DNA of 62,793 nucleotides, the filler included, from Asterionella formosa (lineage: Eukaryota): assembly GCA_002256025.1 (NCBI GenBank). It is 14 parts of 14 records of this genome, joined end to end, with 100 filler letters (N's around TTAATTAATTAA, not from the genome) between each part and the next. Parts side by side here need not be neighbours in the genome. Positions count along the whole stretch, not along the records: positions 1 to 22,471 come from NKIB01002721.1; 13 more parts are not named here. The stretch is one strand, 5' to 3'. Of the stretch, positions 2,027-62,793 are shown piece after piece. The notes under the pieces were generated by a model. The model was not told the DNA's origin. It did no database searches and saw nothing but the letters and a program-made list of their open reading frames with translations. The translations under genes and the position numbers were made by a program. The first letter of the stretch is position 1, and the number at the start of each line of letters is the position of its first letter.

Positions 2027-2058
2027 TGCTTGAAAGCGGATCAACTTCGTTATTCAAC

Positions 2059-6430: not shown

Positions 6431-6438
6431 AGGGAGGA

Positions 6439-6900: not shown

Positions 6901-7060
6901 TCATGGACTATACCCAGTTTTGTCTACATGGTGCTTGGGGGTACTGGTAATCGATAGATGGACCCTTTGTCTCAAATTAGCTACATAGTCTACCTGGTTC
7001 CTGGTACCTGGTACGATACTTCACCTCATATTTAATGGCTCGAACATATAACATGATAGT

Positions 7061-9473: not shown

Positions 9474-9749
9474 GATGGGAGGACGTCGGGCACTTTATGC
9501 TGCGGCAATGATCATGATGTTTCCCAAATTTCTTAAAGGTACACTCATGATTCATGATAATACTCAAAAATAATCATGACAGCGTACAGGTCTACTACCT
9601 ACAGGTAGTCTAATGTTCCATTGTTCGAAGTACCTGATCGTTGTCTACCAGTAGACTACTTTAGCTACGTATGCGAATTGTATGTATTATTGCTGACCGC
9701 AAGACAAGCACGAGGCGGTCTGTATTCATAGATTCGACTATCCATATGT

Positions 9750-10450
9750 CATATATACAAGGGCTAAATTTCATTGGGCGTGAGCACATCATCATTCCCA
9801 TCCACACTACCTGGTACCTGAAATGAATGAACAAAACACAGATCAACAGTTCATTCATTACTGCTACAGATTGCTTGTTGATATACCTTGCAACTTCATT
9901 GGAAACAACAGGAAAAGGTGAACAGAAGATTGCCATGGTAGGTCAAGGGAATATGTCAGAATCGTCAATTGTTGGGTAGACAATAGCTAAATGCGTGCTT
10001 TCTCTTCAAGTGATTCTATATCTGATTATATGAAGGATCAATTCACACTAGAAACATCTGTTTGAACATAACTAAATAACACGTTCTTTTTAATCTATGG
10101 GGATATTTGTATACAAAGAGTATATGTAAGAAGTTCTAACCAACAGCATGTGCACAATTTATTCATGAATACTTTCTGCGAAATTTGACTCCTACATTAT
10201 TTTACAGGAATATTTGAAAAGAACATGGATTTGTTGTGGTAAGGTTAATACAGTGACTTGGACTGCATGTTGTAATCTGAGCAAAACAAGCCTAACAAAC
10301 AATTGATTCCCATTTGTTAATACACTGAACAAACGAAATGAATAAACTGACACATTGTTTTATGGAATCATGCAAAAAATAATAAGATTTGCGGTATGTG
10401 AGGATAGAATGGAACTGCATGCTTTCGCATATGCAAAACATGACTGACAA
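9750..10450 (-). mobile_element. Possible highly decayed Copia integrase-region remnant
   Basis: AT-rich and stop-riddled. Short minus-strand peptides such as LQHAVQV resemble the Copia integrase WxxAxxxA region. Limits are approximate. Confidence 0.25.
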
Positions 10451-11815
10451 GTTATTGCTTCGCATTTGCTACAACATGAAATCAACAATCATGAAGGATG
10501 ATTCAGAAACGGAGTACAAGAAAATAGGGGGAGAGGAAGCCCGCTATCAGTAAGTGTTGTATTTCAGAATCAGAGTACAATAGACGACTAGCAGTATCAG
10601 TGTCTGTATCAGGTCAGCAGGGATATCGACAAGAGAGCGAGGATAGAGACGGAAGTAAAGGGGGAGCATTGTGTAACAATTCTATGTATAGATACATAGA
10701 AATTGTTTCTAAATATTATAGTTAAATTTCTTACCACTTCAACCTGTTTTGGACAATTAGTTTCGATATAAATTCAAATGTATTAATGTAGGTGTAAGAT
10801 GAATGAGTACACATTATAGGATGACATTAAGCTAAATGGTGATGTAAATACAATTAGTTTTCCATCATCATGAGAACAGCGATTGAAGTTCAAAGAGAAA
10901 TGACGATTTTGACGTGAATTTTTGTATTACAATCATTGTATATGATGTGATAACTTATTATTATAATTATGAGTCACAATATTCTGTACGACGATAAATA
11001 TTATACATATTAGATGATAAATCGAATTTATATGGTCACATGATTGTCATTATAAGATGAATCACAGGAATAAGATGTTTTCTATTTGCAGATGAATGCA
11101 ATAGTGTTGCTCCATGAGGATCTGTTTCCAATGGATTGACTCAATATAAGAGAAGTAATTGAACCAAGCAAGTTGTATCATTTTGACTAGTGTATTGTGT
11201 TGTCCATGAGGTGTCGTCCTCATCTTCCTTTTGACATGCACTTATTACTAGTCCATGTTGAAAGACAATATCTTATGCTTTGACATGAGCGGTCTCAATG
11301 AATTTTTGGTGTAATTGAATTTCGATTTGTCATAGTCATTTCAGTTATGATGATCATCAGACAGGTTGTTGTATAATTGATGAAGTGCACATGATCCCTT
11401 TATTTTGCTGAAATGTGATGCACATGTTTGTGGAGACACACAAAAAGGGCAAACTGTTTTGCCATTACTGAGATATAGTTGTGAAATGTGTCTCTGTAAA
11501 GATTCATTTTTTCTGAAGATACAATAAATAATAATAATAGATTATTTGTATCTCTGTTATGATCGCCCCTTATTTATGATTGTTTGTACGCACACCGTCA
11601 AAAAAATATATTTACCGGTAGGTGAAGTACAGACCTCGGTTGCGGCCCCCGTAGTTTTTGTATATACACGGGTTTTTATCACGGCTCGACCAAGAGTAAT
11701 TTTTCAACACTAAGACAAACAAAGTGATGCATCCATTCGATTTAGTTGCCGCCGTCAGTTTCATCAAGTAGCCTCGAATTCCTTACATTCTGCCTCGGTC
11801 TTAAGCATCATCATC

Positions 11816-13474
11816 ATGAACACTAACAAACGATTCCAATCCACACTATCGATCAAGTCCCGAAGGCGACAACTAACGCAAACGCGGTTGAATCCATGGA
11901 AGGACACTTTCGAGCTTGACACTTGCGGGCAAGACTTGTTACTAGCCGCTTCCACCGAGAACATCGAGAATGAAAAGCTGTATAGTGCACTTCAGTTGGT
12001 CCAGACTTGGAAGCTGCGCTGCAACGAAAAGCTCCCTCATGCTGTCGACACAACGCACAACTTGGCACATGTTCTGTGGAAAGACTATGCCTGTGGGCAC
12101 TCGGATATGCGGCCAATGTACGCCATGGCATTGATTCGAGGAATTAATGGACTGGCAGACATCATGCAGCAACAAAGATCATTTGCGGGTAGTGTTGCAT
12201 CTCTGTGTGCCGAATTAGGTCTACCTGGTTGGCTGGTCGATCTTCGACATGATGCATCACACAATGACCTTCCTTCACTGCCCACTCTAAGACTAGCCGC
12301 GCAAACATTTCTGTCCTTTTTAGGAGAGCGCTTTTGGAAGCCTCTTCATGAATCGCATACTGGTCAGCGGCAGCAAGCTTACAAAATATTGTTGGAATAT
12401 GAAGCTGCCACCAACAAAGTGGGCGATGGAACCGATTCTGAGGTCGCCCAGGTTATGCAAGATCCGCACGAAGCTATTGAGGACGACGATGACGAATCAA
12501 GCGACGAAGAATTTGGAGAAGATTCAAATGAATTGGATGTATTGCTAGGTATGAATTCGGGAAAAACCATGAATAGGTTCGCTGCACTAGAAGAGAGAAA
12601 GAAGCAGAAGGTAAAGCACCCCAAGCGAAGAAGGCGGAAGGTCATCCTTGCTCCCACCAATCCTTTGGACATTGCCCGCCAGTATGTCAAGATTATGCCC
12701 ATGGATGTTGGTCTTTATGTGGCATTATCATTCTTGATTTGGGGGGCAACTGGCGATGTACCATTGGGATGTGGGGCCTTGGTTCCTTCATCCGCTACCT
12801 TGATTCCGGCCAGCCAAGTTGGCATCGATCGTATTAGACAACGATACAAGCCACTCTTATTCGCCCTTGCACAAGCATGGCCCGGATTCGTGCATTCTTT
12901 CACGGTGCATTTAGTAAATTGCTGTTTGTCGATAGAAGCAACGGGTGATATCACAGACGTTGGAGCTGTTCGCAAGCTGTACTTTCTCACTTCCTGGATC
13001 CGGTTTTCCCTTTCGCGAGACTTTCATCGTTGTCATGATAGATACCTTTCTATTATAAATGGATCACTAGAATTAGGCAAGCGAGCAGTTTCGATATGGA
13101 AATTGACGGAGCGAAAGTTCATGGAACAACCAGCACCTCTCGAAACCCTTCGAGCAGCAAATCTACCACTGAACAGCCTCTGTGATCGATGTCTCGACTT
13201 CAAAGGAACGAACAGCCAAGACCTTGCTAGTTTGTTCGCTAAAATTCTCGGAAACGAGCGGATTCTCAATTGCGGCATCCATCACGGAATTTTTCCTCCG
13301 AATAGTGACGTCGCCCCACTTGAAGAAATGAATTTCGCAATGTCATTGGTCACGGAATTAGAAGTCTATGAGAAAACGAGCAAACAAAGCCAACATGCTA
13401 CGAAGTTACTTTGGACACAATGTTCCTCATGGGATTCGTGCGCAATTGGCAGTCTCCCTGGTCGACCAGTATAA
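11816..13474 (+). CDS. LAS1: Las1-like pre-rRNA ITS2 endonuclease (HEPN)
   Basis: LPHAVDTT, YAMALIRGINGLAD, LGLPGWLVDLRHDASHNDLPSL (RHxxxH HEPN motif), C-terminal W..CAIGSLP; 552-aa open ORF. Confidence 0.9.
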   Translation: MNTNKRFQSTLSIKSRRRQLTQTRLNPWKDTFELDTCGQDLLLAASTENIENEKLYSALQLVQTWKLRCNEKLPHAVDTTHNLAHVLWKDYACGHSDMRPMYAMALIRGINGLADIMQQQRSFAGSVASLCAELGLPGWLVDLRHDASHNDLPSLPTLRLAAQTFLSFLGERFWKPLHESHTGQRQQAYKILLEYEAATNKVGDGTDSEVAQVMQDPHEAIEDDDDESSDEEFGEDSNELDVLLGMNSGKTMNRFAALEERKKQKVKHPKRRRRKVILAPTNPLDIARQYVKIMPMDVGLYVALSFLIWGATGDVPLGCGALVPSSATLIPASQVGIDRIRQRYKPLLFALAQAWPGFVHSFTVHLVNCCLSIEATGDITDVGAVRKLYFLTSWIRFSLSRDFHRCHDRYLSIINGSLELGKRAVSIWKLTERKFMEQPAPLETLRAANLPLNSLCDRCLDFKGTNSQDLASLFAKILGNERILNCGIHHGIFPPNSDVAPLEEMNFAMSLVTELEVYEKTSKQSQHATKLLWTQCSSWDSCAIGSLPGRPV

Positions 13475-13686
13475 TAATACTAAAGAAGGATGATTTATTT
13501 GTGAAAGTACAGATCATGTGCTCGGAGGCGACAAAGCATTCAATTTCACGATGACGGATGTGACAAAGACTGCATCTAGCTGAAGAATATTCTTTGATCA
13601 TTGAATTGCTATCTGGTAGGTGGCAGTTCATCCCCATACTCCGGGACAAATACAGCGCTTCGTTTCCACCCAAAACAATAGTATGG

Positions 13687-15033
13687 TTACACTCTAAGGT
13701 TCTCTGCCTTGATTCGAATTATTTGGCTCGCTGACAACTGAATATCGTATCGGTTACTTTCCTTATTCCACCCTTTAATCGTTCCCCACTTTCCGTTTAA
13801 CTCTGGCTTGGAATTCAAGGCGGTGATCTGTCCAACGGTGCCTTCCTCCAAAATAACGTTTGTCGGCTTTAGACTGACTACGTGCTTTACTGCCATGACA
13901 TAGATATTGTAGCGGCCAGTCGCTGTGTTCCACGTAATGACGGTTCCCATCTTTCCATTGAGTTCAGGTTTGCTTTGTAGACCATGTACTCGAACATGCA
14001 CATGCTGTAGCAAATTGGATGCCTTGACACTCATGGTTTCGTCAGTATCTTCAAGTTCCACCACATAGCGCCCTGTAACGGCATTGTAGGATGAAATTTT
14101 ACCCCTGTCGCCATTTCGGTCTGCAGCATTGACGAGACCCTTCAACGACACAATAGTACCAGCGGGGATAGCATCGTATCTCATTGGTTCGCGATGCATG
14201 GAGGTGCGCATGCCCGGCATACCGGTACTCCCTCCCATTGGTCCACTCATTCCTTGAGCACCTCCAAAAATTTGAAAAGGATCTCCTCCTTGCATGGAAC
14301 CGCCTGATACGGAGACAAACGGACTTCGTGTTCGTCTTGCTCCATGCATGCTACCGGCATTTCCAAAGCCACTCATAAAGGGATCCGATCCACCGAAAAA
14401 GGTCGAGAAGAAGGCCTGTGCTTCTGCTTCACTCATGCCCCCATGATGACCACCCCCCATTCCTCCAAAATGTGCTCCTGGTCCATGGAAGTGACCACCT
14501 CCCGTAGGCATGTCGCCGCCATTCTGTTCAGCAGCATTGACTCCGTCCAAACCGTACTGATCGTATACTTTTCTTTTTTTATCATCTGATAAAACAGCAT
14601 ACGCTTCCGAAATCTTTTGAAAGTTCTTCGTAGCTTCTTCGTTGCCCGGATTCTTGTCGGGATGCCACTATTGACAAATGAACGGGAGGATAGAAGTCAG
14701 TGTTGTTGTGTCAGCTTGACTCCTCAACTAAATGGGACGACAGTAACAGGCAGTACAAGTCACAACAGAACAGTTCATGGGTGAATAAATCAGCAGAGGA
14801 ACTGGAACGTGATTTTACTACCAACAATCGACGATTAGCGCACATCATGGTCGACAATGCAATCTAGATTCCCCTATTCAACTCGGCGCCAACGACCGTC
14901 ACAGGCAGTAAGGACAACCTCAGCTCACCTTTACCGCTAATTTTCGATAAGCTTTCTTCAGGGCTGCTTCATCAGCAGATTTGGGACATCCCAGAATCTG
15001 GTAGTAGTCGTCTGAATTGAGATTTGGCGCCAT
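13687..15033 (-). CDS. DnaJ/Hsp40 protein with G/F region and three C-terminal SH3/KOW-like repeats; intron 14668-14928
   Basis: Exon 1 [35 protein letters not shown] splices (GTGAG...TAG) to [28 protein letters not shown], giving a J domain with HPD. Confidence 0.92.
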
Positions 15034-15959
15034 CTTGTTTGCTTCCTTCTTCTCGTTGCTTTGCGATTTGCTCTAGTTTTGCTATTGTGTTCGGGAATTT
15101 TTTGCTTGCAAGACTGTGCATGCATGGAATGTCTCCTTGCTTGATTGATGCATCGATGTCACCAGTTCCCCACTCGGCGCACTTTTTCATGTGGGTCTGT
15201 TTTTTACCCTAGTACCAGGTGACCTGGTAATACCTGGTACCTGGTACCGGCATTCATTCTATAATATATACCTACCGGTAGTATCATCCACAAGCAAGTC
15301 TAACTAATTATTAAAAGTCCTATCAATTACTCTGCCATAAACTATGTACAGCAAGTATATACCGGTAGGATTTGCGTATTCTAACAGCAGAGGAGTTGTG
15401 CGATACGCGCAGACACGACTATCTGTACCGTCTTGGCCCTACGTACATACGTTCCTGACACCCTAGTAGTCAATAAGAAACGAAGGAGATAGTACCTGTA
15501 GCAATCATTTGGGGATGGCAAACCGGTACTGTACGAGGTACAAGGTGCTACTTACCGGTAGTAGGAGTTCCTGGTCCTGGTACCTAGCGGTAGTACCAGG
15601 TACCACACTATGTATGACTCAACCGGGAGTAGACAACTACTGTATATTGTGTGGGTTTACTGTACCTGGTATCTGGTACTCCATGTTTCAATAATATTAT
15701 GTACTGGTATGTGTGTGCAACACTGCTGACTTCGAAGACATCAAAGCCCCATCATTACTATGATGTCGTATCCGAGTGCTACCTGGAACCTGGTACCAGG
15801 GTACCTGGTGCTAAGTCAACAAAAGCACTCTTCGATCGAACTCTATTTTGAGCAGTTCGACCCTGGACGAGACGAGCACCAAGGGCACAACATACATGGT
15901 ATGGGTAAATGTTTGATCATTATGGGATTTTTTAAAACGGAGCTCAGCTTTTGCCGGAC

Positions 15960-18660
15960 TAGTTCCAATTAAATCTGTAAGTGGTCCAAGAACATGAGAT
16001 CGTCTAGGAAACATGTCTCGATAGTACATAATAGCACCAAGAAATGATCTGACTTGTTTAAGATTGGTAGGTGAAGACATATTAATCAATGCTCGGACCT
16101 TTTTAGACCAAGGTTTCAGTCCATTACTAGGAGTTAACCAATAGCCTAACCAATCTGTCTCTTGGACTGCCCATTCACACTTATATGGATTAATTGTAAA
16201 ACCATTTGCCTGTAAACGATGTAAAATAGTGTCCAATAGATGAGGAATGTGATCCGAAAATTTCATTGAAACACAACCCACATCATCAATATAAATTTCC
16301 ACATCATCTAAATCACTAAGAATCTGTTCCATAGTTTCTTGTGCAATATCAGATGATTTTTTCACCCCAATAGGGAGACGTAAATATTTATATAAACCAA
16401 ATGGAGTGGAAATAACGCACAAATTTTGACTCTCCACATCTAATGCGAAAGTGTAGTATTGCATAGTAGAAACATCCAATTTGGTGAAAATACATATCCG
16501 GAACGTTTAGTGAGAATAGTTTGTATTCGAGGCAAAGGATATATATTGCGATTGATGACATTATTGAGTTCATGAAAATCTGATATCCATCGGACACTTC
16601 CATCCTTTTTAGGAATAATAAAAGTGGGAGACGCCCATTTAGAAGCACCACATTTTTGTAGGACTCCAATATCACACAATCGTTGTAATTCGGTTTTGAA
16701 AACTTCTAAATGAATATGAACGATCGGATATGCTCGTTGATGACGAGGGATGGCATTTGATGATAATTCAAAATGTACTTGTTTATGAGGATAAACTTTT
16801 AATTTTCCATCAAATAATGTTTGATATTTAACCAATATAGTTCGCAAACATGAACATTGCATTGTTGATAAATGCATCTGTTTATTCAGCACTGTATCAA
16901 TATTCACATAATTATATTCAGCAGCTTTAATTTCCAGCGCATATGAAGATTCCACAATCATAGGTGCATCAAAATACAATAATACATCATATAAATGTTC
17001 TCCATCATCAAAGAATGTGAGAGGATGCATAGGAACAATCATATCCATACAGGACATGGTGTTATTTTCGAAATCAATGGTTAAACCAACTTGACGAAGG
17101 AAATCACGTCCTAAAATAGCATCAAATGTGCATAGACCATTAAAAACTTGACACTTTTGTTGTAAAACACGAGCAGATCGATTAAATTCAGGTAGAATCA
17201 GGTCATATAAAATAAAACTGGCATGAGATGAATAAGTACCAGCTATGGTGTGTACTAATTGGGAAGTCTCGTTAGACAAAGAAATACCTTGAGGTATAAC
17301 CCGTTCATGTATTAAGGATAAGGATCCTCCACTATCAAAAATACTCGTAGTATTTTATGCATAGACATAGCATCCACCAATCATGGCACTAAAAGAGACA
17401 TCGGAATCAGATAAATTGAGGTTAATAAATCCTTAGAAGTAAAACAGGAAACCGGAATTGGTCCCTGATATGTATGTGGAATGTCATGTCCATCGATGCA
17501 TTTATAGATGTCCCGCGTTACAGCAACAGTGGTATCCATAGTGTATTCAACCTGTATATAAACAATATTATCCAGGTGATGACTACCGGTAACGTTAGAT
17601 ATACTCAACAAATCATTATAAATAGCATCACCATTATCGCACATACCTCTGTAATGGCGATCAGCAATCTGCTGTTGTGTAGTAGGGACAAAAGTCACTA
17701 TCTGACCAACAGGAGGGTTCGTGACCACTGAAATTTCCTGGGCAGATGTATTCTCGGTAGGATCGGCATGTGGCATGGTACCCCAACCGGATAGATGAGT
17801 ATCATGACCCCATGTATTTAACATACGAGCAAGTGGAGCAGGCACAGGGTTAGCAGTGTCAGTATGGTAGCTTTCCGTAGGATTACTCTGTGAACCGCCA
17901 CCACAACCACCAAAATGTCCTCGTCTACCGAAACTGGAACGGCCACGTCCATTATGACGACCAGCCATGCGACCTGCTCGACTACCTTAAGTACGAGGAT
18001 TCTGAAAACAATTGCCCCAAGTGTGTGTACCTTCAGGATGTACCGGGGGCAAGGGCCACGATGATCATGGTACGTACGACTGGCTTGTAGAGCTTGATGA
18101 CAAACAGTCGCCTGATGATCCCATGTGCGACCGGCTGCATCATCAATAGCATGCGCTCTTCCACGACCACTTGGAGTAAAATCATTGTTGTAGAATTGAC
18201 GACTGACACGCTCGTTTTCTTGACACATCACACAATCGCCTTCAGCAATAGGAAGACGACTTTGTGTGATTGTTTGAAAACTGTTCTTGGGAAGGTGCTT
18301 GTTTCGATCCTTAAACGATTGTTGACTCTCGAAGTAAGCGAGAACCAAGCGAATCGATTGTTCTGAAGTTTTGGCATGATTCAATTCAAACTCTTGTTGC
18401 CACTCATCGGGCATAGAACAGACGATGATAATCCGCATATCTTCTTTTGACAATCCGTTTAGATCTTCTGGATGAGGCATTTGTCTGATTGATTCACTCC
18501 GATCAACAATGCTTCCACAGAGCTTCCATTGATTACATCTTGATCAAACGATTCAAACCTTCCACTGGTTAAAGCAACTCTGAATGTTTTAGTCTTTATA
18601 GTCAATACACTGTAATCTTTGATCAAAGGAATGACAGGAACCCTTGAATACATTGCCATG
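15960..18660 (-). mobile_element. Truncated, degenerate Ty3/Gypsy retrotransposon (gag-PR-RT; no integrase or LTR pair recognised)
   Basis: Gag-like MPDEWQQEFEL; protease region FDSGGS and DAILGRDFL; RT WASPTFIIPKKDGSVRWISDF, YPLPRI, TPFGLYKYLRLPIG, YIDD, WLGY, VRSFLGAIMYYRD. Contains frameshifts and breaks off before RNase H. Confidence 0.9.
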
Positions 18661-19191
18661 TTCGTTTTCTTCCAATTGGACTCTTTTTTAATTCAAAGTC
18701 AAGTATCTAACTAGAAGTAGTAGTATTTGTTGAATATATGAGCTAATTAATCTTATGTAAAACTTGTTTCCCAAGTTGACATCAAAGTATACAATAAACA
18801 TCGGTGTTAGTCGAGTTCTGATATATTTGGTAGAACCCTAATCCTACATACATCTGTATCGATGTGCAGGATCACTCACCAGGTATCCTGTGCTCCGGAG
18901 TACCAAGTACCCTGGTACCATCAGGAAACATGAATTCAAAAAGAATACTGGGTTTTTGCAATTCTCGCTAATGTGATTTCCACAACGACACAAAGTATTC
19001 CCTTTGCAAAGGATTACTTGGCAGATGGGTTGACAAGGTTATTGACAAGCATTGTCAAATGAATTCAATTTGAAATGAAACGACTCTCATTTTCAAAGCT
19101 ATCGAATGACAATGCTCAAAACTTTCGAAGAATAGATTATTCAGTCGCCTGAAGATCATGGGCTAAGGTACACCCACAATTTTGTAGTTAA

Positions 19192-20252
19192 GGTTCCTGC
19201 ATTTCAACCCTAGATTTGAGGTAGGGATAAAAATGAAATATTGAGTCAGACTAATCAAACACATAATTTTCACGTCTAAACTAAATATGTATATTACTAC
19301 TCGGAGCTTTCACCATTGGACACCCTTTCCATATGCTTGGATACCGTCATTGATCAAAGTAGGGGTAAGGGTAAACTCTATATAACGTCAGTATATAGGA
19401 TCTGGCCAGAAACTGCAGAAAGGAACTTCGGTTTTTTAACTATGCTGAAAATAGTGGATTTTTACCGGGCCAACTCGTTTATTTGGCCTAATAAAAAAAC
19501 CGAAGTTTCTTTCTGCAGTTTCTCGCTGAAAGTTAACTTCTGGGGCTATATGAAGATTACCTATGTACTTAACTCTTTTTCAAACCCAGCCAACGTTGAG
19601 CTGTTGTCCCCCCCCAAAATTCGACAAAATCGGCCTTTTCAACGGTCTCCAAAATGTTGGAATCAGAATCACTAATCGCCGAAACGTCATCATCGGAATG
19701 TAGTCTTGTGCTAAAATATTTAGTCGTAAAATCCCCTGTACAAAAAATTCCATTGTATGTGCCTGTTTCACTACAAATATTTTGATTGGTCAATTTCAAT
19801 TACTTACCGATATTTGATTGGCCCGGTTTGCGAGGTCTTGCAAACCCACACCGGCCACCCTTGATACACATTTAATAATTTCTTGGGTGATCGCCGGTAC
19901 CCCGGTACCTGTGACCATATCCAATACAGGTAACGGTAGATGATTATCATTTGGTGCACGTGTACCACTCTTAGAAAGCACTTCAAATATTTGCCGAGCC
20001 GCCGAGTTGTATCACACATAAACCGTCGATTGGTGTATAGAGTGTATATCGGTATATATAGAGAGAGATGTACAATCTATATCTATATATTTACCGAATT
20101 CGAAAAGGAATCTATGCAAATTTCCAATGATTTGAATATTTCAAATGGAATCATGTCATTTTAAAAAGCTCATAAAAATTCTTAGTTCCAGGGAATTTCG
20201 GCAAACCTAAGCAATATTTTAATTTTTGCCTTAGGGTTGAAACGCAGGAACC
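19192..20252. mobile_element. Non-autonomous DNA transposon (MITE-like), probably Kolobok superfamily
   Basis: 21-bp TIRs GGTTCCTGC(A/G)TTTCAACCCTA with TTAA on both sides (19188-19191, 20253-20256). RR...YY ends plus TTAA fit Kolobok rather than piggyBac. Contains a peptide remnant similar to ORF 42748-43383. Confidence 0.8.
19408..19523. repeat. 30-bp inverted repeat (hairpin) inside the MITE
   Basis: AGAAACTGCAGAAAGGAACTTCGGTTTTTT ... AAAAAACCGAAGTTTCTTTCTGCAGTTTCT, one mismatch. Confidence 0.9.
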
Positions 20253-20822
20253 TTAATCGAAAGTATCAATCTGATACCTGGAACAATTATTCACAGCCAG
20301 TCAACAAATTTTTCTCCGGCTCAGAATATTTAGGATGTTATCTTTCAATGGCAGGGTTCAGTCTTATATGTAGTCCTACCTTTTGCCTTGTGAATTGTTT
20401 TCTTTTAAGCGTGGTTTTATTCCTGGCAAAGTCAGTTATTGATATTGCCTTTTCTCCGACAAGACATGAACTCATGGCGCTCAGCATTATCAGTTGTTTC
20501 CTAGATATTTCTATGGTTAATCTTGGTTACGATGGATATTTGGGTTCTTGGACGGCTCTTGGAAATACTCTAATTAGCCTTAGAGAACTAAATCAGCTTG
20601 TCTTAGCATGAATATTCAGATCATGATCGCAGCAAGGCTGCAAGTCAGTGGAGAGTTGAGGTGAGATTTCCAATACTGAGTCTAAATTTACCCCAGCTGC
20701 TTAAATTCTCGAGTTTGTCATTGTGCTTTTCTCATTTCTGAGTTCTATTCATTAAGAACAGAATACAAACAAAGTTTTAGATTTGTTGGATTGCACTTTA
20801 CGGGCAATCCAGGTTCGTTACA

Positions 20823-21357
20823 GTGCCCAACTTGAGCGCATTATTTGATTCTTTACGAGATCATCAATCTCACCGAAATATCTCTCGTGTTTTTTCGACA
20901 AGTATCGAGAAGAATGAAGAACAAGCCATGTATCTAGCAAGAAATGATGAAACCTATGATCGCAATGATGATGACGAATTTTTCCTGTCCTATCAGGTCC
21001 TGTTGAAACTGGCCTCGACAGCACTGCCCTTGCCCCTGTTACAAATGGGCTGCACATTTCTTTTCTTGTGGAGGACGTTTTCCATGCCCTTGGTTCTTCA
21101 GAGTCCCTTTGGTGATACCAGTGAATCAATATTGTTTCTCTTCTTTTTGACTTATGGCTTCATTGGGATGGAACTCGTGGGCATGCAAATGATGTCTCCA
21201 TTTGGTATTTACCTTCCTTGATTGTGTAGGTTGCAGCATTCATGTTGCCGTTGGTACAATTTTCGAAATCATAGCTCAGAGACTAGACAAACTCTCATAT
21301 TCTCTCATATATCAGGTGGTGGCTTGCATGATTTGAACATTGCTGGAATGAGAGAGG
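20823..21357 (+). pseudogene. Bestrophin-like (UPF0187) channel fragment
   Basis: PLPLLQMGCTFLFLW...MPLVL...FFLTYGFIGMELVGMQMMSPFG, continuing after a probable intron as GGLHDLNIAGMRE (ExxxxxxxxPFGxDxNDL-type motif). N-terminus not found. Confidence 0.6.
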
Positions 21358-21843
21358 TCAGGCATTTTGAATTGTAGATTGTCATGCTCATGTGTCTCAC
21401 ACTTCCTTTGGAACTCGCAAATCTATCTGCAAATTCACTCAGATTGTTCTCTGCAAATTCTCATAACGGACTTTTCCTTTCTTATGCAACCATTCTTGGA
21501 ATTCAAAATGATAATACTGCAATTTGGATTAGTAGCTAAAGTTACAAAGCCATGAGTCAGCAAAGACTCTTATTCACAGGCCACAATAACTTGGAGATTT
21601 ATGCTGCTGGCATGGTGTCACACCATCAGGAATCAAGTAACTCCATGTGTATTTCAATGGGGCCCTCACACTGTGGCTATATTTGGGCCTACAATTGTAT
21701 GAACTCAGCATGCCTGATCATTTGCAGTTGGCACTCCAACCCAAAACTTAATTTTGTCAAGTAATGTTGATGGTTTTTTCTTGTTCTGAAAGAACGCACC
21801 AATTTTTGTATGGAATGAGGAGTCTTGTTCTAAACTGATATAA

Positions 21844-21965
21844 GGTTGCAGCCCCAGATTAACCCTAGTTTGGAGTAAAACATCACTAGGGTTGTTAAAT
21901 TGATATACCCGTAGAACAAGAAAATATTTGCATGTTCATTCCAAAGAATCATGTATCAGTTTTAA
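21844..21965 (+). mobile_element. Isolated Kolobok-type terminus related to the end at 44392
   Basis: ATAA|GGTTGCAGCCCCAGATTAACCCTAGTTTGGAG...CTAGGGTTGTTAAATTGA closely matches the reverse complement of 44330-44396. Confidence 0.7.
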
Positions 21966-22160
21966 TCTATACAAGTGTGGGACTGCAAATATTTAGAGAA
22001 TGTGAAAGGTTTGCTGGAAGTAAGATCAAAGTTTTCAGGCATGATCAATTGTCCTAATCTTTCTTGGCTTTGTGGAGGTGAAAGAGACGTTGAAGTTTTT
22101 TTGTCAAGATCCAAGCGGAAATTCACTCAGACTTTTTACCACGGTAAAAAAAATTCTTTG

Positions 22161-28390: not shown

Positions 28391-28867
28391 GATTGTGTCT
28401 GGTTGTGGCAGTCAGACAGTCCGGAGTAGTAGTATTTCTAGTGCCTTCTCTCGCTCTCGCTCTCGCTCTCGCTCTATCGTTGCTGGTTGTTGTAGGACAG
28501 GTTGCCGCAGTTGCTGGTGTGTCGAATGTTGATTGCTGTTCCGATGGAATTGTCTGTGTGAGGACATGAATACCGGTAGTTTTTAAGACAAAATCAGTAA
28601 AAATTGATAAAAATGACTATTATGACAATTATTATATTGCTTTTTGCCTGCCTCTTGCCAATGACAGCGGTATCATAACAAGAACTACGATATACCTGGG
28701 AGTTTTTGGCTCTACATACCAGTATATGTATACCCGGTACCGGAAGGTATTTTGCTCTATATACCGGTATGTGTACATTTATGTATACCATGTACCGGAA
28801 GTTTGTTGTTGGAAAAAATTTCATTCATACTAAAACAAATGCATTTTATAGTGAGAAAAGATTCACG

Positions 28868-29536: not shown

Positions 29537-32500
29537 TAAGCAATGCAACAAAAGAAATTCAACCTGCGAAATCACCCCATCAAAAAGATTGATGAAAACA
29601 AAAAATAAGTTAGTGAGCGAAAGTTATTCATAAATAAACGATGAAAATATTAAGGCCCCATGCCAAACTCTTTCAGCAGCAAAAACGATCGTCTCCTTCA
29701 TCAGTCGTCTACATGTCAATACATCTGGAATCATCGTGATGATGGTCCATAACATAAGAGGTGTCAGAATTTTAATAGTGTCTCATCAAGTGAATGAGAG
29801 AGTCGAATATTGCTATTGTCAGGATGAGAGTTTGTGTGTCATGCTCAACGTACCTCGCCAGTCGTCATTTCAACGGTAATGAACGATCTGCAGTTCAGTG
29901 GTTAAAAATACCTACATTAAAAAATTGTTAGAAACATGAAATGGACAGTAGTATCAGTACGATCCAAATTTTACATTCTCCAGATTTCAGGTGTTAGTTA
30001 GATCCTGCTTGTCTCATACTGGTAGTGTGAGCGTCCAATGTTCAACCTTGCCATTTTGGCAAGGATCTTAAATTCGGCATCACCCAGATCGAAAGACCGT
30101 CGTGAAATAGTAAAGGTGGTGTTCATCATTTGGAGATAATCGAATAAATTCACGCCATATAAGCGAGCTTGTGTATACAGTGTAAAATTTTGGCTCACCT
30201 CACATCTTTGAACTGCAGCCACCTCAAAGGATGGCTCAAAGTAACGGCATTCCAAAATTAAAAGGCTCTGTGTGCAATTGTAGGATTTTCAATCATTTCA
30301 TTGTTTAGTATGTTCACAGATGATTGGCGTCACGACAGATGACATCTGGAATGATGAGTACGATACCCAGTCTGTTCCGTTCCATTATCATTGCCTGATG
30401 TTGATATGATGGTTACCGGGTAAGGCAATTATGAATTGAATTGGAAATCATTCAACAGCCTTGCCAACGACCACAAAAAATGCTGGCAGCAGAGGATCTA
30501 CCGGTAATGGTATTACTATTTTCGTGGTTGTGGCGGCAGTGGGTGGTGCATCCATCACCAGCCCATACGCCTTACATACCAGGGTACCTGGTATCTGGTA
30601 CCAGTACCCTTATCCTTCAAATCTGCACGTGCCCGACCCTGCTGGGAAGGTCCGGCAATCGAGCTATTTAGCTATTTATCTTTTCCGAAGTAAAAAACGT
30701 GTTTTCCTGACCTTTTTCTTGTCTAAACTTCCTTGCTTTGTCATGACTTGTCCTTGACATACTATCCGTGCACCTCCACTTGGCATGTGAATGTCATCGC
30801 ACATGAGCTAACAAAAAGATTCCTCATTCTATTGATGAATACCATTACACATGCATGGCACATTCAGATGCCAGGGCCTGAAAATGCTTACCAGCAAGTT
30901 GCAGTATTTTTGCTGAAATGGACAACATGATGCAGGACAGGCACTCAAAAAGACTGCCGGAAAATAGAGAGCACAACTCGACAGTATCACGATTTGTTCA
31001 TGACATGTAGGTTTTATGCTAACTATTTTGTCAAAACATCGAAACATCGAACTGAGGCAAATCAAACGAGTGAAAACAGAAATGACAATGACCAGGGCAA
31101 TAGAGGGGTGGCTCCAAACTCAAAAAATCCTCCTTTCTGGCTGAAGTGATGAAAACAACCAATAATGAACAGTTCTATATCAATTAGGAGTTGAATATTC
31201 ACATGTTACCATCATCATATGTAACAACTTGTTGTGCCTGATAAAACTATTATACCATCCTCAAAAATGCTGTGGATTAAAACAGTGGAAACATCCTTCA
31301 AGGCTTGGACTACAGACTTATGACAGCCAAGCGCCACAGGTGGAAAATTTGGAGGATCGCTGTCCTCAGGTTCATTTTCGCCCCCCACCATAACTCCTTC
31401 TTTCTCTCCTCCCTGTGTCCTCTTGAGCACAAGTGCGATTAGTAGCCTAGCTAGGTTTAATGCATTTTAAAATTTCATTAAACAACCACAACACAGTACC
31501 ACCATATGCATGTTGGCTTGACTCATGCTGCTCAGCCAGCAGGGTACCTGAGGTAGTAGCACTCATAAGCGCTTGTAGTAGTATATAATTATTTAGCTTT
31601 GATTATTCGATTCTTTTAAATAGACTGAGATATACCAGTATAGTAGTACTATGGAGTTTTATGTAGTAGTAGTCATGACCGGCTGGAGAATGCATGGTGC
31701 ATGTTGTTGTGGCCTTGACTATCACAAAAAATAATGAATATCTCAATGAAAAATGAGAACAACGCTTTGCTATTTGGTACATATATTAAGAACAATATAG
31801 AAAATGCAATCGTAAAAGAATAGTTGAAATAACACTAATATTGACAACGAAAATTGAAATAGTCCATGGCGCATTTTTTAAATGAAATTTATAGATTCAC
31901 AATTCAAAGCGACGATGTTACTATCAGTAGATTTGACACTTTGACAGTAAATGTGCAACGAATAATACAACGACGATTAAAACAATATATCACATGATTA
32001 ATTAAAGCAAAAGATGTGAAACAAGCTTTTTATAAGCTTAGATTTGATTGCTTGTATCAACGCCGCCAAAAGCATGAATTGTGACATTGGAATGATGGAA
32101 GGGTGATGGTGATGAGATTTAAAAATTGTTTGCTTACCAGTAGTACAAGTACCGGTACACTATTACCTTCATTAGTCAACAGTCAATCTAGTATACATAA
32201 CATGCACATGCACTGTACATACATAGTTTATAAAAATCATATTCTTTTGTTGGTATGATGATGCTGGCAGTTACAAATTTACAATCCCAAAGACTTATAA
32301 ACCGTTAATTAAGATAGATTGTTTTCATCACTTGGGTGGAAAACAAGAACGAGAATGAGAATGATTTTGAGTCTGAAGAGTATAAAGCGAAGTAAGCAAG
32401 ACTTGCTTACTTTTGCTTTGGGCCACCCCTATATTGACCCGGTCATTGTTGCGTTTAGATGCTTCCCTGTTTTGAAGAATAAAATTAGCGTAAAACCTAC

Positions 32501-41000: not shown

Positions 41001-41873
41001 ATTGGTTCCAATGGACATGACAGCACCATCTACAGGTGGAAATAGTGTAAATGTTGAGGGGCAAATTCAACAATTAACAAGCCGGACAACGATTTGCAGT
41101 TAGAGTTGGACCTCATTATGGTTCTGGCCTACAAGCAGCTGCGCGTATGTAGTCTCAGCAAGACTCCAAAGTCAGAAGGACTTTGTGAAGTTGGAATTGC
41201 AAAGAGAAAGGCAGCCAGGCTATTTACAAGGCTTGAAAGGGGGGGGGAATAAGTGTTTCCATTATTGGGTAAGTTACAGAGCAGATTACTGGTAGTTGTG
41301 GTTACAGTGCTCATAAAATGATCAACAGAATATATGTGGCATATTGTCAAGAACTTTCAGTGACCCACATTTTCAACAAAATGCTTATTGATTGATGCAC
41401 AGGTGGAAATCCACAACTATGTATTTAGTTAATTACTACAGTAACTATCATTCAGGTTATTACATTCTCATTTTTTCCATTTAATGTTATACATTTGATT
41501 TGCTTTACCAAAGTGTTAATATGTGTAGTTTTGTAGGAGTACTATATTATAGCTGACACATAATTAGTGATCACTGTACATGTACTGGTAAATATATTGC
41601 ATTGCACGAAGATACCCTGGTGTTGGTACCTGGTACCTGTTGTGAGTAAAGGTACCAGGGTACCTGCAAGTTGCGTTAATTTTGCTTTCTTGTGTCATTC
41701 CCCCACCAGACAGATGCGTTCCGACTTGGCAGGCTTTGAGAAATCTTAGTTTGAAACTTATAACGGGTGGCACCGCCAGCCGAAACAAGCAAAGACTATG
41801 CAAAATTCGATATTTTTAGATAATTCAGAAAAAACAGATTTGACGAATCGTCATTTCGGGTTAAAGTAATGAA

Positions 41874-41976
41874 GGACTATTTTAGTTTAAGCAAATGGGC
41901 TCTACTTTAAGCAGTTTAAGCAAAACTACCGGTGCGTTAAGCAATATTTTGCTTAAACTACCACTGGTAGAAGTCC
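41874..41976. mobile_element. Tiny (~100-bp) MITE-like inverted repeat with GG...CC ends
   Basis: TGAA|GGACTA..TAGTTTAAGCAAA ... TTTGCTTAAACTA(CCACTGGTA)GAAGTCC|TTAA, with internal TTAAGCA repeats. Confidence 0.5.
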
Positions 41977-42747
41977 TTAATTCATATTCTGGCTGCTAAC
42001 AAAACTATGTACCGGTAGACAAACATACCTACCGGTATACCGGTGAACCTTATTTCATATGTACCTACCGGTATAGCTGTCTGCATCACTAATAGAGAAG
42101 GAAAGTAATTTACCGGCTATGGTACCAGTATTGCAATTCGAGACATCGGCTTTCTATTCTGGTGTCCCTACATCATCGCAACTTCTAAGTTGTGGTATTT
42201 GTAACATTCTTGTTTACAGTGGTACATTTACCGCTTTAACTGGTGTTACTGCCGTGAACGCGTTTGATGGAAGCCTGTTCTTTGACAGCCATATCATTGT
42301 ATATTGCCAACACATTCTTCTCCATCATGCTGTGACCATCGTTTCTTTCCTCGTTTCGTTTTCTCTTGTTCTTCGTGTTTTGGATGGGTACATAGTGTTC
42401 CAATTCAGCAGGGTTGAAACTGTAAGTTGAAATACTTGCACCATCATTCTTTTGACCTCATGTTGACTCTTTCCACCCTGCCCAGACCATGTTTGTCATT
42501 TTCTTTCTGTTTATCAGGATTGAGCATAGAAGATTCCAAATGCTGTAAAACCGAATCATTTGGCATCCCATCCTCATCACCATGGTTGTTGACACACAAA
42601 AATGGCCTGAGAGTTTCATCAGTAGAGCTGGTGTCCAAACAATTGCTGTAGCCAGCTAAAAGTTCCACTAGCAATGGATTAATGAATGCCATTCCTAATA
42701 GTAATGAATGAATGAAATTTAGTATCATTATTTCTTGTATAGTACTA

Positions 42748-45142: not shown

Positions 45143-46522
45143 AGGCATATGATACGGTGCCCCACGAGGCGCTCTTTGCGAAACTATCCCGGTTTGGGAT
45201 TAGGGGACGTTGCCTTGCTTTTCTACGTGCCCTTTATCGCAGCAGTACAATCAGGGTACGAGTGGGGGGTGGCTTGACTGCCCTTTACTCGGCCCCCTGC
45301 AGACTGTTGCGAGGTGTGCGGCAGGGTTGCCCTCTTTCGCCTATACTGTTCAACATCTTCATTGATGACTTGGCAGTGGGGACGGAGGAGAGCGGTGCCC
45401 TGGTACCAACTGGGGACAGTCGCACATGGCGGAACTCCACACCCACACTGACAGTGGGATGTACCCTCTTTGCTGATGATGCGGCCGGAATCTGCCCCTC
45501 CCTGGAGGCGGCCAAACGGTTCTGTACGCACGTTACCAACTGGGTTACAGCTAACGAGATGAGTGTGGGCATAGGGAAGTGCGGGCTGATGGAATTCCTA
45601 CCGCCAGACCCAGGTTCGGCCACCGAACCGCTTGTCCCTGGACAAGATGTGGCTGGACTGGAACTGGAGGGACTTCCACTCCCTGTTGTGGACAGATATA
45701 TGTATCTGGGTGTCCTCATGACACCAGGTCTGTCTATCTCGTCTATGGTGGACCATAGAGTCAAGCAAGGGCGGGCCACAGTTGCCACCTTGGTACCGTT
45801 TCTACGGTGCCCGGTGGTACCAATGGCCATGCGTTTGCTGACTGTTGCAGGAGTAGTTGCCCCCCGCCTCCTTTTTGGGGCTGAGCTGTATGGTATGAAC
45901 CGTCACCTTACGGACAAAATGCAGGTTCTTCTGAACCGATGCCTTAGGGCTAGCATTGGAGCCAGGAGGGCAGGGGGTGTGCCATCAGTAGGCCTTTGGA
46001 AGGAGGCACGGATGTTGCCAATGTGTGCCTTGGCGGGTGCCCGACGGGCCAGAGCTTATGCCAAGGCCTCGGGTCTCAAAACCTGGCTTCAGGAATTGGT
46101 CCTAAGACCATTCCGAAGTCAGAAATGGACATGGTGCTCAGGGGGTCCGCGCTGGCTGAAACGCTATGCGCTCCCCCATGCACCGGTGTCTATTGTGGAG
46201 AGGTACTTGGGTGCTGGATGGCAGAGCCTGGAACCAAAGGTACTGGCTGAGGTAGTGAAAGCATGCATCTTGGAGAGAGAGTGTGGGATCCGACGGAACT
46301 TGACTCGTCCGTCGGGGGCCCGCACAGTGTGGTATGAGGGAGCCGGATTTGACAAGCATCCACTCACACGGTCACGTGTGGGGGGCAGTCCCAACGACCA
46401 AGCAGGACTGGCTTTGATAGTTCGGTGTCGGATTGGGGCATTTGTAACTGTCCCCACCTTGGTGGGGTGGAAGCGAATGCCTCATAGGTATTTGAGGAAG
46501 TGTCCATTTTGTGGTATGGATG
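45143..46522 (+). mobile_element. Non-LTR retrotransposon (LINE) reverse transcriptase fragment
   Basis: AYDTVPHEAL, GVRQGCPLSPILFNIFIDDL, LFADD, KCGLM, YMYLGV, start of the CPFC zinc finger. Open frame across the whole contig; GC-rich. Confidence 0.93.
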
Positions 46523-47576
46523 NNNNNNNNNNNNNNNNNNNNNNNNNNNNNNNNNNNNNNNNNNNNTTAATTAATTAANNNNNNNNNNNNNNNNNNNNNN
46601 NNNNNNNNNNNNNNNNNNNNNNGCAACTATGGAGGTTCCGGTGGAAAGGAGTAGGAGGGAACGCAAAAGCATCATGGTAATGACAATGGTAGGCTAGTGG
46701 GTTCCACTTGATTCCCAGTGGAGGAATAAAAATGTGCAGGATGGTCTTTCTTAATGTGTTGTCCATTTATCATGATACATCATTAATGTAATACCGGTAG
46801 TTGGTCGGGGCACTTAAAAATTACATATAGAGGCGAAGGAACTGGTACACATTTAGCTAGTTGATTTCTTCGTTGAACGTGGACCGGTGTTCTATGCAAT
46901 GTGGTACTCGTTGAACATTATCCCTTCAACATGTATCATATCTACATGCCTTCTCGTTCGATTGTACCAGGTACCTGGCACAAGGGATGGTGATTACTCG
47001 TCCAAGCGAAGTTCGTTTGGGTTGTTTCTCACACTTTTTTTTTCTTCCCTCCTGGGCACAACAACTACCCCAAATCTCCCATTGAAATACCTTAAATAAC
47101 CATACATAATTGAATGCCAAACTGAATGAGCGACTTGTGGGTTTGGACTCACCATCAGTATGCACTCTTAAAGGGTCATACAGTTATGGATATTTTTATC
47201 GACAAAGAGGGACATTTAGGCCCGAATCCTCGCGATCTATTATTTGCTTTGTTGTACATGAATACATCGGTAGTATACCATATCAAAGATAGGTTATATA
47301 TATTGTTTAATCGTGAACTTTCTTTTTTCAATTCATTCTGTTTGGGAAAACCAGCGATTCGGCACGGGCCCATGATACATTGATTTCGGTACTCGTAGAA
47401 CCACTTTCCTTTTCTACAAAAGGTCATCAAAGCCCCTCTCCGTTCATATACCAGGTACCAGGTACCCTGGTAACAATAACTGATGGGGAACCTAGATGAT
47501 GTACAGGTAATGATTTTTTATGATATTATCTGAGTAGGGGGGTTTTAATTTATCGGTTACCGGTATTATGGGAAAG

Positions 47577-53311: not shown

Positions 53312-54019
53312 GACGTGAATCTCAGTTACCACCGGTCACCCATTGCGCCGTGCATCGCTTGCTTTCATTTCTCGTCATGCTCACACTGGAGAATACCGGC
53401 TCAGCAGCCCACTCGCCACTCGCCGTATTCGTCCTCCAAAAGTCAAAGGTCCCTCCCGAATCTCGCCGGTTCCCACTGAGTCGATGAAGAAAGCAAGAAG
53501 CACCCGTGTGTCAACCGTAACAACAAAGTATGCCTAGCGGGAGACCGCCATCGAGGTTGGACCACAGGGAGCCAGCCTTTTTTTTGTACGAACAAGCGCG
53601 CAATAAGACAAGCGTTAGATGCGATATTTAAAAAAGCATCAAGATTTCGCATGTGGATGGTTTGTTTGTACTTTACATTTTATAGGTTTTTTATTTATTT
53701 TATGAACAAAAGCGCAAAAGTGTACCGGAAATAATATTCTCATTATTATTACCGGTATTATTAGACTACTGATCACGATGATTTGTGAAGAAGCATTTGA
53801 ACAGATCGCCCACCATGACGGCACTGTTTTTCTTGCATCGGCACTAAAATACAAATGTCATAGAGCAAGAATGACGACGCAAAGGAAGGTACCAGTACTG
53901 GTAGCAGGTACCTGGTACCNNNNNNNNNNNNNNNNNNNNNNNNNNNNNNNNNNNNNNNNNNNNTTAATTAATTAANNNNNNNNNNNNNNNNNNNNNNNNN
54001 NNNNNNNNNNNNNNNNNNN

Positions 54020-56877: not shown

Positions 56878-56977
56878 NNNNNNNNNNNNNNNNNNNNNNN
56901 NNNNNNNNNNNNNNNNNNNNNTTAATTAATTAANNNNNNNNNNNNNNNNNNNNNNNNNNNNNNNNNNNNNNNNNNNN

Positions 56978-61414: not shown

Positions 61415-62793
61415 TCACAACTCCCTCCGAGGAGCCATGCCAACCGTTGTTGGTCAAAACCGAGGGCGAAATTCGGCCCTAACGTCCGAACTTTCGCGAT
61501 CAATTCTGCCATGTGTGGCTCGGTACGTAGAACACGCCACCGACCACACGTGAACACTAAGTGTTCCAGCGTTTCTGGTTCATCCATACCACAAAATGGA
61601 CACTTCCTCAAATACCTATGAGGCATTCGCTTCCACCCCACCAAGGTGGGGACAGTTACAAATGCCCCAATCCGACACCGAACTATCAAAGCCAGTCCTG
61701 CTTGGTCTTTGGGACTGCCCCCCACACGTGACCGTGTGAGTGGATGCTTGTCAAATCCGGCTCCCTCATACCACACTGTGCGGGCCCCCGACGGACGAGT
61801 CAAGTTCCGTCGGATCCCACACTCTCTCTCCAAAATGCATGCTTTCACTACCTCAGCCAGTACCTTTGGTTCCAGGCTCTGCCATCCAGCACCCAAGTAC
61901 CGGTACCTCTCCACAATAGACACCGGTGCATGGGGGAGCGCATAGCGTTTCAGCCAGCGCGGAACCCCCGAGCACCATGTCCATTTCTGACTTCGGAATG
62001 GTCTTAGGACCAATTCCTGAAGCCAGGTTTTGAGACCCGAGGCCTTGGCATAAGCTCTGGCCCGTCGGGCACCCGCCAAGGCACACATTGGCAACATCCG
62101 TGCCTCCTTCCAAAGGCCTACTGATGGCACATCCCCTGCCCTCCTGGCTCCAATGCTAGCCCTAAGGCATCGGTTCAGAAGAACCTGCATTTTGTCCGTA
62201 AGGTGACGGTTCATACCATACAGCTCAGCCCCAAAAAGGAGGCGGGGGGCAACTACTCCTGCAACAGTCAGCAAACGCATGGCCATTGGTACCACCGGGC
62301 ACCGTAGAAACGGTACCAAGGTGGCAACTGTGGCCCGCCCTTGCTTGACTCTATGGTCCACCATAGACGAGATAGACAGACCTGGTGTCATGAGGACACC
62401 CAGATACATATATCTGTCCACAACAGGGAGTGGAAGTCCCTCCAGTTCCAGTCCAGCCACATCTTGTCCAGGGACAAGCGGTTCGGTGGCCGGGTCTGGG
62501 TCTGGCGGTAGGAATTCCATCAGCCCGCACTTCCCTATGCCCACACTCATCTCGTTAGCTGTAACCCAGTTGGTAACGTGCGTACAGAACCGTTTGGCCG
62601 CCTCCTGGGAGGGGCAGATTCCGGCCGCATCATCAGCAAAGAGGGTACATCCCACTGTCAGTGTGGGTGTGGAGTTCCGCCATGTGCGACTGTCCCCAGT
62701 TGGTACCAGGGCACCGCTCTCCTCCGTCCCCACTGCCAAGTCATCAATGAAGATGTTGAACAGTATAGGCGAAAGAGGGCAACCCTGCCGCAC
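61415..62793 (-). mobile_element. Second copy of the LINE RT plus C-terminal CCHC zinc finger
   Basis: Near-identical to 45317-46522 on the opposite strand; extends to CPFCGMDEPETLEHLVFTC; has a 6-bp in-frame insertion at ~61900. Confidence 0.93.

Follow-up and report, generated by a model that had tools for sequence, protein, structure and literature searches.

Noncoding DNA of the diatom Asterionella formosa was found to contain an excess of short words in which two TA dinucleotides enclose a CC..GG core. These words are probably excision footprints of a mariner-type (Tc1/mariner) element, present at unusual density and left by termini that approximate 5'-CCAG(G)...(C)CTGG-3'. The duplication of the TA, the polarity of the inner letters and their length spectrum all favor the Tc1/mariner reading put forward in the original prediction, but neither an element, nor an occupied site, nor cycling at TAs was found.

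The window, that is, the whole stretch of 62,793 nucleotides that was analyzed, is not one locus, as spacers consisting of 44 N, TTAATTAATTAA and another 44 N join separate scaffolds. It is made up of a 22.5-kb scaffold (1-22471), a second scaffold with two assembly gaps (22572-45042) and twelve contigs, each about 1,379 bases long; the examples at 47448 and 53888 thus sit on separate small contigs. Four of these twelve contigs are mutually 97.5-98.8% identical, and one pair is 98.8% identical in reverse orientation. Pfam analysis of 64 ORF translations identified host genes, all eukaryotic (an EZH2-like SET protein, LAS1, DnaJ, EXS, PIG-F and RNase H1), as well as retroelements (copia- and gypsy-type pieces and a LINE-type RT). 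A JGI entry is identical to the LAS1 protein, whose named relatives are diatoms. The public runs containing 6800-16000 are mostly lake or freshwater metagenomes, together with one "algae metagenome," and the window was accordingly taken as draft sequence from a freshwater diatom.

Over the whole window we counted 23 copies of TACCGGTA, 10 of TACCAGTA, 9 of TACTGGTA, 8 of TACCTGGTA, 5 of TACCAGGTA and 3 each of TACCAGGGTA and TACCCTGGTA, and the top over-represented hexamer was GGTACC (n = 45). Words were present at all 11 places that had been named as examples. TA-X-TA words with at least three occurrences in 54,878 non-redundant bases were then ranked against an order-2 expectation. TACCGGTA occurred 22 times in these 54.9 kb against 0.41 expected (54-fold), TACC(A/T)GGTA 13 times against 0.46 (28-fold), TACCAGGGTA and TACCCTGGTA together 6 times against 0.08 (72-fold), and TACCAGTA and TACTGGTA together 19 times against 1.97. 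A Markov background was simulated for the two long scaffolds (43,843 bases, 100 simulations per order). The 15 copies of TACCGGTA found there compare with simulated means of 0.18 (order 1) and 0.99 (order 3), and the 34 copies of TACC(N0-2)GGTA with means of 0.59 and 2.17; none of the simulations at either order reached the observed counts. At order 5 the excess of TACCGGTA was mostly gone (15 versus 10.1), because the hexamers themselves are then fitted. On the same scaffolds, the control palindromes ATCCGGAT, TTCCGGAA, AACCGGTT, GACCGGTC, CACCGGTG, TAGGCCTA, TAGCGCTA and TACGCGTA were each absent, as were NNCCGGNN palindromes of other kinds and other CCGG-centered or TA-flanked palindromes. 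The anticipated k-mer enrichment over a Markov background is thus strong, and the excess is specific to TA flanks. The flanks of the 23 TACCGGTA copies are unrelated and without consensus, indicating a constant donor rather than copies of a longer repeat.

The words are unevenly distributed between coding and noncoding DNA. The 24,969 non-ORF bases contained 54 strict words, as opposed to 5 for host ORFs (20,576 bases) and 1 for transposon bodies (9,333 bases), corresponding to an approximately 9-fold higher density in non-ORF than in host-ORF DNA. This bears out the claim that they are rare in intact genes, but not the claim that decayed transposon regions are full of them, as transposon bodies are poor in words. 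Strict words are present in 7 of the 16 window pieces, which speaks for a genome-wide feature. The focal spacer (15205-15812), which a truncated retroelement with an RT domain adjoins on the side opposite DnaJ, holds 9 strict words in 608 bases, whereas 1.3 would be expected from the non-ORF density (Poisson P of about 1e-5). Even so, describing this DNA as saturated overstated the case, since strict TA-X-TA units make up 93 of the 641 bases of 15190-15830. The features referred to here and below are as follows, all of them unstranded:

15205..15812, focal spacer, the densest TA-CC(N)GG-TA cluster of the window, upstream of a minus-strand DnaJ-domain gene
15213..15229, longest unit, TA-CCAGGTG/ACCTGG-TA, with 13 inner letters
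15231..15247, two CCTGG units with one common TA, TACCTGGTACCTGGTA (Tandem Repeats Finder period 7, 2.6 copies)
15273..15280, lone TACCGGTA, with more lone copies at 15360-15367 and 15553-15560
15794..15803, TACCAGGGTA unit at the right edge of the focal stretch
6991..7014, heptamer run TACCTGG, 3.4 copies, just past the 3' LTR of a copia-type element
17584..17591, TACCGGTA within a retroelement fragment; other copies or alleles are 6 letters shorter
28571..28769, words in the divergent EXS-family/PIG-F-like spacer
30577..30607, mixed chain of CCAGGG, CCTGG, (T)CTGG and CCAG
41610..42075, two word clusters, with 3 TACCGGTA inside 64 bases
46204..46205, plain TA, the empty site in the sister LINE copy (RVT_1 domain found)
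47449..47472, shared-TA chain CCAGG-CCAGG-CCCTGG, on its own 1,379-base contig with 10 strict words
53888..53919, chain CCAG-CTGG-...-CCTGG, reaching the end of another small contig
61898..61905, TACCGGTA within a LINE-type reverse-transcriptase ORF, 6 in-frame extra letters relative to the sister copy

The words had also been described as often chained through common TAs. Strict shared-TA chains amounted to only 5, with 6 adjacencies and 11 of the 62 strict units; the other 51 lie outside such chains, and most units are solitary, with flanks that are unrelated. Two of the 6 adjacent pairs consist of identical units, and the other 4 differ in length or orientation, so that the heterogeneous chains do not come from plain slippage. 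Tandem Repeats Finder detected only four period-7 TACCTGG arrays in 45 kb (at 6991, 15231, 30583 and 41624), of 2.3-3.4 copies. Head-to-tail arrays of one unit, the mark of a slippage satellite, thus did not go beyond these four and 3.4 copies. Slippage may extend some of the chains, but the class as a whole is beyond its reach. Repeated insertion and excision at the same TAs, as had been proposed, could be reflected in just the 6 shared-TA adjacencies.

The inner letters of the words are polar. In our model, the words combine prefixes of one element end with suffixes of its inverted partner, the ends being 5'-CCAG...CTGG-3'. Such a model would be expected to produce CC+GG, CCA+GG or CC+TGG, CCAG+GG or CC+CTGG, and CCA+TGG, with the mirror forms absent. 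The inner forms were counted as follows:

CCGG, 22
CCWGG, 13
CCAGGG/CCCTGG, 6
CCATGG, 1
CCCAGG/CCTGGG (mirror form), 0
CCTAGG (mirror form), 0

Judged from the letters themselves, this polar spectrum is consistent with element ends of the form 5'-CCAG...CTGG-3', although some units exceed 4 letters per side. There were only 2 CCSGG words and no CCCAG or CTGGG, which argues that CCWGG is not a product of CpG decay of CCSGG. In contrast, the 19 TACCAGTA/TACTGGTA words (CCAG/CTGG) may have come from TACCGGTA by CpG decay and need not be footprints in their own right, as the CpG observed/expected ratio is 0.72 and the CCGG>CTGG transition is about 6 to 10 times as frequent as the word's other transitions. 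The CCAG/CTGG words were for this reason not counted as evidence, and a polarity argument from 19 CCAG/CTGG against 6 CAGG/CCTG was dropped as weak, CCGG>CTGG being a CpG transition. The longest unit, 15213-15229, may be read as 7 plus 6 letters, that is, two inverted element ends joined between TAs.

We took advantage of Logan contigs from four runs belonging to four studies, which were placed on 6500-22471 and covered the clusters at single-copy depth. The focal stretch was partly covered by contigs of X2, X5 and X7 with 0-3 substitutions. The X5 contig over 14698-15260 had 3 letters changed and no gaps, the X7 contig over 14722-15415 had no letters changed and 6 gap letters, and X2 contigs extended over 11588-15468 and 15673-15985, the latter with no letters changed. 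Furthermore, at least 14 runs contained half or more of the words sampled from 6800-16000. An artefactual origin in sequencing, cloning or assembly, with linker or adaptor remnants as one example, can draw on the common cloning sites GGTACC and ACCGGT within the words and on an assembly broken into many 1.4-kb contigs. However, the same words recur in contigs of independent environmental runs, which goes against the refutation by artefact allowed for in the original prediction, four runs from four studies span the clusters nearly unchanged, and one artefact common to separate environmental studies is implausible. We consider this explanation extremely improbable.

Two insertion events were seen directly. 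Apart from substitutions (98.8% identity in an alignment of 1,213 bases), the LINE copies at 61415-62793 and 45143-46522 differ by a single indel, CCCAAG-TA-CCGG-TA-CCTCTCC in the former versus CCCAAG-TA-CCTCTCC in the latter; the alignment reads CCCAAGTACCGGTACCTCTCC versus CCCAAG------TACCTCTCC. The scar is in frame, and the RT ORF reads ...ERYRYLGAGW... across it. Similarly, at 17584-17591 the window has GAC-TA-CCGG-TA-ACGTTAGATATAC, whereas other copies or alleles have GAC-TA-ACG, six letters shorter. The contigs that extend beyond 17585 continue ACGTGAGATATAC, and all 4 of them (3 from X2 and 1 from X5) are without the 6 letters. Both events comprise 6 letters, and the only placement ambiguity that they have in common is the TA, which matches what a TA duplication requires. 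In both, the extra letters lie at a TA and are bounded by the duplicated TA, and the empty (TA) as well as the scarred state was observed. Only these two events inform the direction of change. No further copies of either retroelement were matched in genome contigs or in viral contigs.

The change from TA to TA[CCGG]TA had been expected to dominate among indels. It was seen directly in these two cases, but it was not dominant among the indels inspected. There were no motif inserts among the 12 listed of 46 indels between the four runs and 16 kb of the window, and there was 1 among the few indels between repeat copies within the window. The LTR pair had 1-letter indels only, the four near-identical contigs had no indels, and the scaffold ends had one 4-letter indel. 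Exactly 6 gap letters were present in the X7 contig over 14722-15415 (with no substitutions) and in the X2 contigs over 6865-9943 and 9933-11022, and the X2 contig over 11588-15468 had 9; these gaps are no more than suggestive of motif-type inserts.

As a rough check of the rate, we took the decay rate of an 8-letter word to be about 8-fold that of a single site. Upholding 2.16 words/kb would then need about 17 new words/kb per unit divergence. Across the comparisons of repeat copies (the LINE pair, the LTR pair, the inverted scaffold ends and the four near-identical contigs), this would roughly predict 1.8 events, and one was seen, indicating that the process can be ongoing and neutral. That young transposon bodies hold so few words (1 in 9.3 kb) is compatible with such a process.

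The source element had been predicted to lie outside the window, and our search agrees with this, as neither a transposase (64 ORFs) nor a TA-flanked inverted-repeat element was found in about 55 kb. None of the 64 ORF translations (17 + 47) matched a DNA-transposon transposase of any family in Pfam; the domains found were those of retroelements and host proteins only. The multi-copy ORFs at 54241-55398, 48104-49480 and 56977-58356 were considered as transposases and rejected, as they match no Pfam family and show nothing transposase-like. No convincing TA-CC...GG-TA inverted-repeat element or repeat family was found in the window. The inverted pair at 46792-47721 is weak: its match is 11 letters long, 6 of which are the word itself, so that 5 letters lie beyond two TACCGGTA, and we estimate a chance expectation of 0.1-0.2 for such a pair. 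Five TA-flanked segments were folded in comparison with shuffles. The folds of 15594-15671 (z -1.8) and 37150-37237 (z -1.6) were not significant, and that of 41927-42017 (z -4.0) came from an internal hairpin and not from the ends. None of the "skips" of about 100 bases in the run contigs, considered as MITEs, ends in TA-CC..GG-TA, and no element-occupied site was seen in the window or in the run contigs. A search for Mos1-like 13-mers gave one near-match (51069-51081), which 9 of 100 shuffles equaled and which is not significant. Finally, a LAS1-based scan of metagenome contigs yielded one 33%-identical match, on an unrelated contig of 58% GC without any words.

A constant CCGG together with a duplicated TA in unrelated sequence needs a constant donor, and the known mechanism that leaves a TA-duplicating constant insert is excision of a TA-targeting cut-and-paste element. 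Insertion of such an element would duplicate the TA. The element would then be cut out a few letters inside each end, and the donor would retain CC(A) after the first TA and (T)GG before the second. Trimming of both flaps followed by end-joining would give TACCGGTA, a one-letter overlap with an A:A mismatch would give TACC(A/T)GGTA, and four letters from one end with two from the other would give TACCAGGGTA or TACCCTGGTA, while TACCATGGTA would be a rare product. Mos1 cuts three letters inside its ends. A Mos1-like stagger would leave CCA and TGG flaps with a one-letter A:A overlap, and hence would yield CC(A/T)GG. The scars would last only where they are harmless, hence their build-up between genes, and local re-insertion beside an old site with slight slippage would give clusters and short chains; the clusters could arise equally well if open promoter DNA were a favored target. 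Scars as stereotyped as these would also require that the host joins ends cleanly. We infer the element as agent, the sequence of its ends, the stagger of its cut and its local hopping from the words and the two events.

What is known of excision footprints comes mainly from single events at marked loci and from untidy scars that distinguish closely related plant genomes. A Tc1 footprint, for instance, reads TACATGTA. Tc1/mariner footprints retain 2-4 letters from the start or the end of the element, enclosed by two TAs, as in TAC(A/T)GTA for Sleeping Beauty (PMC6943129). The words described here are like these canonical footprints in that two TAs enclose end letters, with variants produced by end-joining, among them an A/T center where non-complementary flaps meet (PMC6943129). 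In addition, what each event here inserts at a TA is precisely one more TA and 4 inner letters, as in canonical footprints. However, the inner letters are CC..GG, some units have 5-6 of them and one has 13, and in some units 4-7 end letters are kept, compared with the 2-4 given as usual (PMC6943129). Moreover, canonical footprints are experimental products at a marked donor, whereas here the non-ORF DNA carries a standing stock of putative scars, about 2 per kb.

The 5' inverted repeat of the mariner Mos1 of Drosophila mauritiana begins CCAGGTGTAC/CCAGGTGTACAAGTAGGG, its first 7 letters being CCAGGTG (PMC3419177). Mos1 also targets TA, and this start matches both the CCAG(G) end proposed here and the CCAGGTG at 15215-15221. 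Past these 7 letters, however, no Mos1-type repeat adjoins words in the window. The longest resemblance to Mos1 is TCAGATGTACAAGTAGG, 17 letters at 51065-51081, which is single and unpaired and lies at a contig end. Kinship with Mos1 is thus a candidate relationship only. Between the rices O. sativa and O. glaberrima, excisions of Mariner-type and other elements were mostly untidy, 8 of 94 being perfect and the others having deletions or filler (PMC4423477). In that study, excision of TA-targeting Mariner/Stowaway and other elements is regarded as a general source of small changes that set close genomes apart (Roffler and Wicker 2015; PMC4423477). Unlike those rice scars, the products seen here are so stereotyped that together they make up an over-represented class of words, and such uniformity is in itself unusual.

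Three further explanations were weighed against excision by a mariner-type element. The words might form a cis-regulatory family, in which a dimeric factor binds a palindromic site of the TACCGGTA type, promoter clusters are under selection and the inserts are incidental. They are indeed palindromic, strongly non-ORF and scarce in transposon bodies, and the densest clusters lie 5' of genes (15205-15812 for DnaJ and 28571-28769 for the divergent EXS/PIG-F pair), with another word at 11613, about 100 bases ahead of the LAS1 ORF. Clustering on the promoter side is equally expected for a regulatory motif. Unlike a palindromic site, however, the center varies in length from 4 to 6 (CCGG, CCWGG, CCAGGG) and is polar, words also occur 3' of genes and beside transposons (6991-7014), and the new copies are exact 6-letter inserts in retroelement ORFs, with no promoter role there. 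A literature search found no such site in diatoms. Taken together, we regard a regulatory origin as unlikely.

We see slightly less reason to think that the words are mini-elements, still or once mobile, made of two tips with almost nothing between them and spreading by insertion. The unit at 15213-15229 resembles two joined tips, TA-flanked CCAGG...CCTGG segments of 74-84 bases are present at 15594-15671 and 37150-37237, and each of the two events adds sequence at a TA, an outcome that a mini-insertion would reproduce identically. Nevertheless, 4-6 inner letters are far fewer than known transposase binding sites contain, and we know of no such site as short as four to six letters. The lengths CC+GG, CCA+GG and CCAG+GG fit variable end-joining rather than one replicated sequence, and the longer segments show no significant inverted-repeat fold. 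A process independent of transposons, in which a 7-letter unit slips during replication and/or the template is switched at palindromes of the GTAC type, appears more improbable still. It could account for the four period-7 TACCTGG arrays of 2.3-3.4 copies, for the identical units in 2 of 6 adjacencies and for the LINE event, which turns GTAC into the 10-letter palindrome GTACCGGTAC. Against slippage, no array exceeds 3.4 copies and 51 of 62 units are outside chains. Against template switching, the second event (GACTA/ACG to GACTACCGGTAACG) has no local CCGG template, and a palindrome-making process should enrich other palindromes, of which there are none.

Returning to excision by a mariner-type element, we propose more tentatively, and at somewhat less than even chance, a hit-and-run history. 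A mariner-like element of low copy number and frequent excision would have left tens of thousands of intergenic scars, about 2 intact ones per kb, and these would still be accruing, as suggested by repeat copies only 1.2% apart. To our knowledge, DNA-transposon activity is little documented in diatoms. In literature listings and abstracts, with subscription journals outside the coverage, no description of such a word class was found. The proposed mechanism is that of the known Tc1/mariner footprint; what would be new is the scale, with standing scars making GGTACC the top hexamer. If this is correct, excision would be a measurable, sequence-specific mutational force on noncoding DNA, even with the element rare or gone, and past transposition in a diatom could be counted from its scars. 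New GC-rich palindromic words in promoters would then stem in large part from the scars and not from the elements, and such words could be recruited as binding sites or serve as preferred landing pads for insertions. It would also follow, as a caution in motif searches, that a promoter word may be over-represented without having a regulatory role.

The original prediction had read short TA-CC(N)GG-TA words, which are abundant between genes, as excision footprints of a mariner-type transposon. The interval 46792-47721 (930 bases) is bounded by TA, and its ends form a perfect inverted repeat of 11 letters (CCGGTAGTTGG...CCAACTACCGG). It is possibly a non-autonomous element with CCGG ends, but 6 of the 11 repeat letters are the common word itself. 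The string TCAGATGTACAAGTAGG, at 51065-51081, forms the first letters of a small contig and is similar to the inverted repeat of the Mos1-type mariners (Mos1 being the mariner of Drosophila mauritiana), with 12 letters in a row identical to the published repeat (PMC3419177). In the window, this string was found as one copy, with neither an inverted partner nor a TA-CC start.

These coordinates run across separate scaffolds that have been concatenated, the final twelve pieces being contigs of about 1,379 bases each. The joins are as follows:

22472-22571, 45043-45142, then every ~1,479 bases up to 61414: filler spacers between scaffolds (N44-TTAATTAATTAA-N44)

Any apparent periodicity, or "tandem array," beyond 45 kb is an artefact of joining pieces with spacers. 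The ends of the first scaffold (1-315 and 22161-22471) form an inverted repeat of about 315 bases that is 96% identical.

Four of the contigs (54020-55398, 55499-56877, 58457-59835, and 59936-61314) are 97.5 to 98.8% identical, show no indels, and share the same first and last letters. All four carry a lysine/serine-rich ORF of 386 residues, for which no Pfam family was matched. They may represent either a gene present in several copies or members of a repeat that were left unresolved. The piece at 54020-55398 also holds one of the copies of the telomere-like word TAACCCTA/TAGGGTTA (4 observed versus 0.62 expected over the whole window), and the same word is present in its near-identical sister contigs. 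The focal stretch (15205-15812), the spacer with the densest word cluster, begins with the telomere-like ACCCTA at 15206-15211.

An ORF of another type lies next to an alpha/beta hydrolase gene on a diatom scaffold:

24466-25113, minus strand: ORF with a match to PF08888, the family of HopJ type III effectors (E 2e-40)

This ORF may be a bacterial-type gene within a eukaryote.

The first scaffold also contains a retrotransposon:

1562-6901: copia-type LTR retrotransposon (LTRs 1562-2027 and 6439-6901, 94.9% identical)

Its interior is decayed and frame-shifted, with pieces of gag, Pol_BBD, SH3_retrovirus, and RVT_2. In X2, one of the four public sequencing runs compared with 6500-22471, the summed word depth at 15561-20357, 6500-7032, and 10764-11829 exceeded that of single-copy sequence (~157) by a factor of 25 to 900, indicating that these intervals are part of high-copy repeat families in natural populations.
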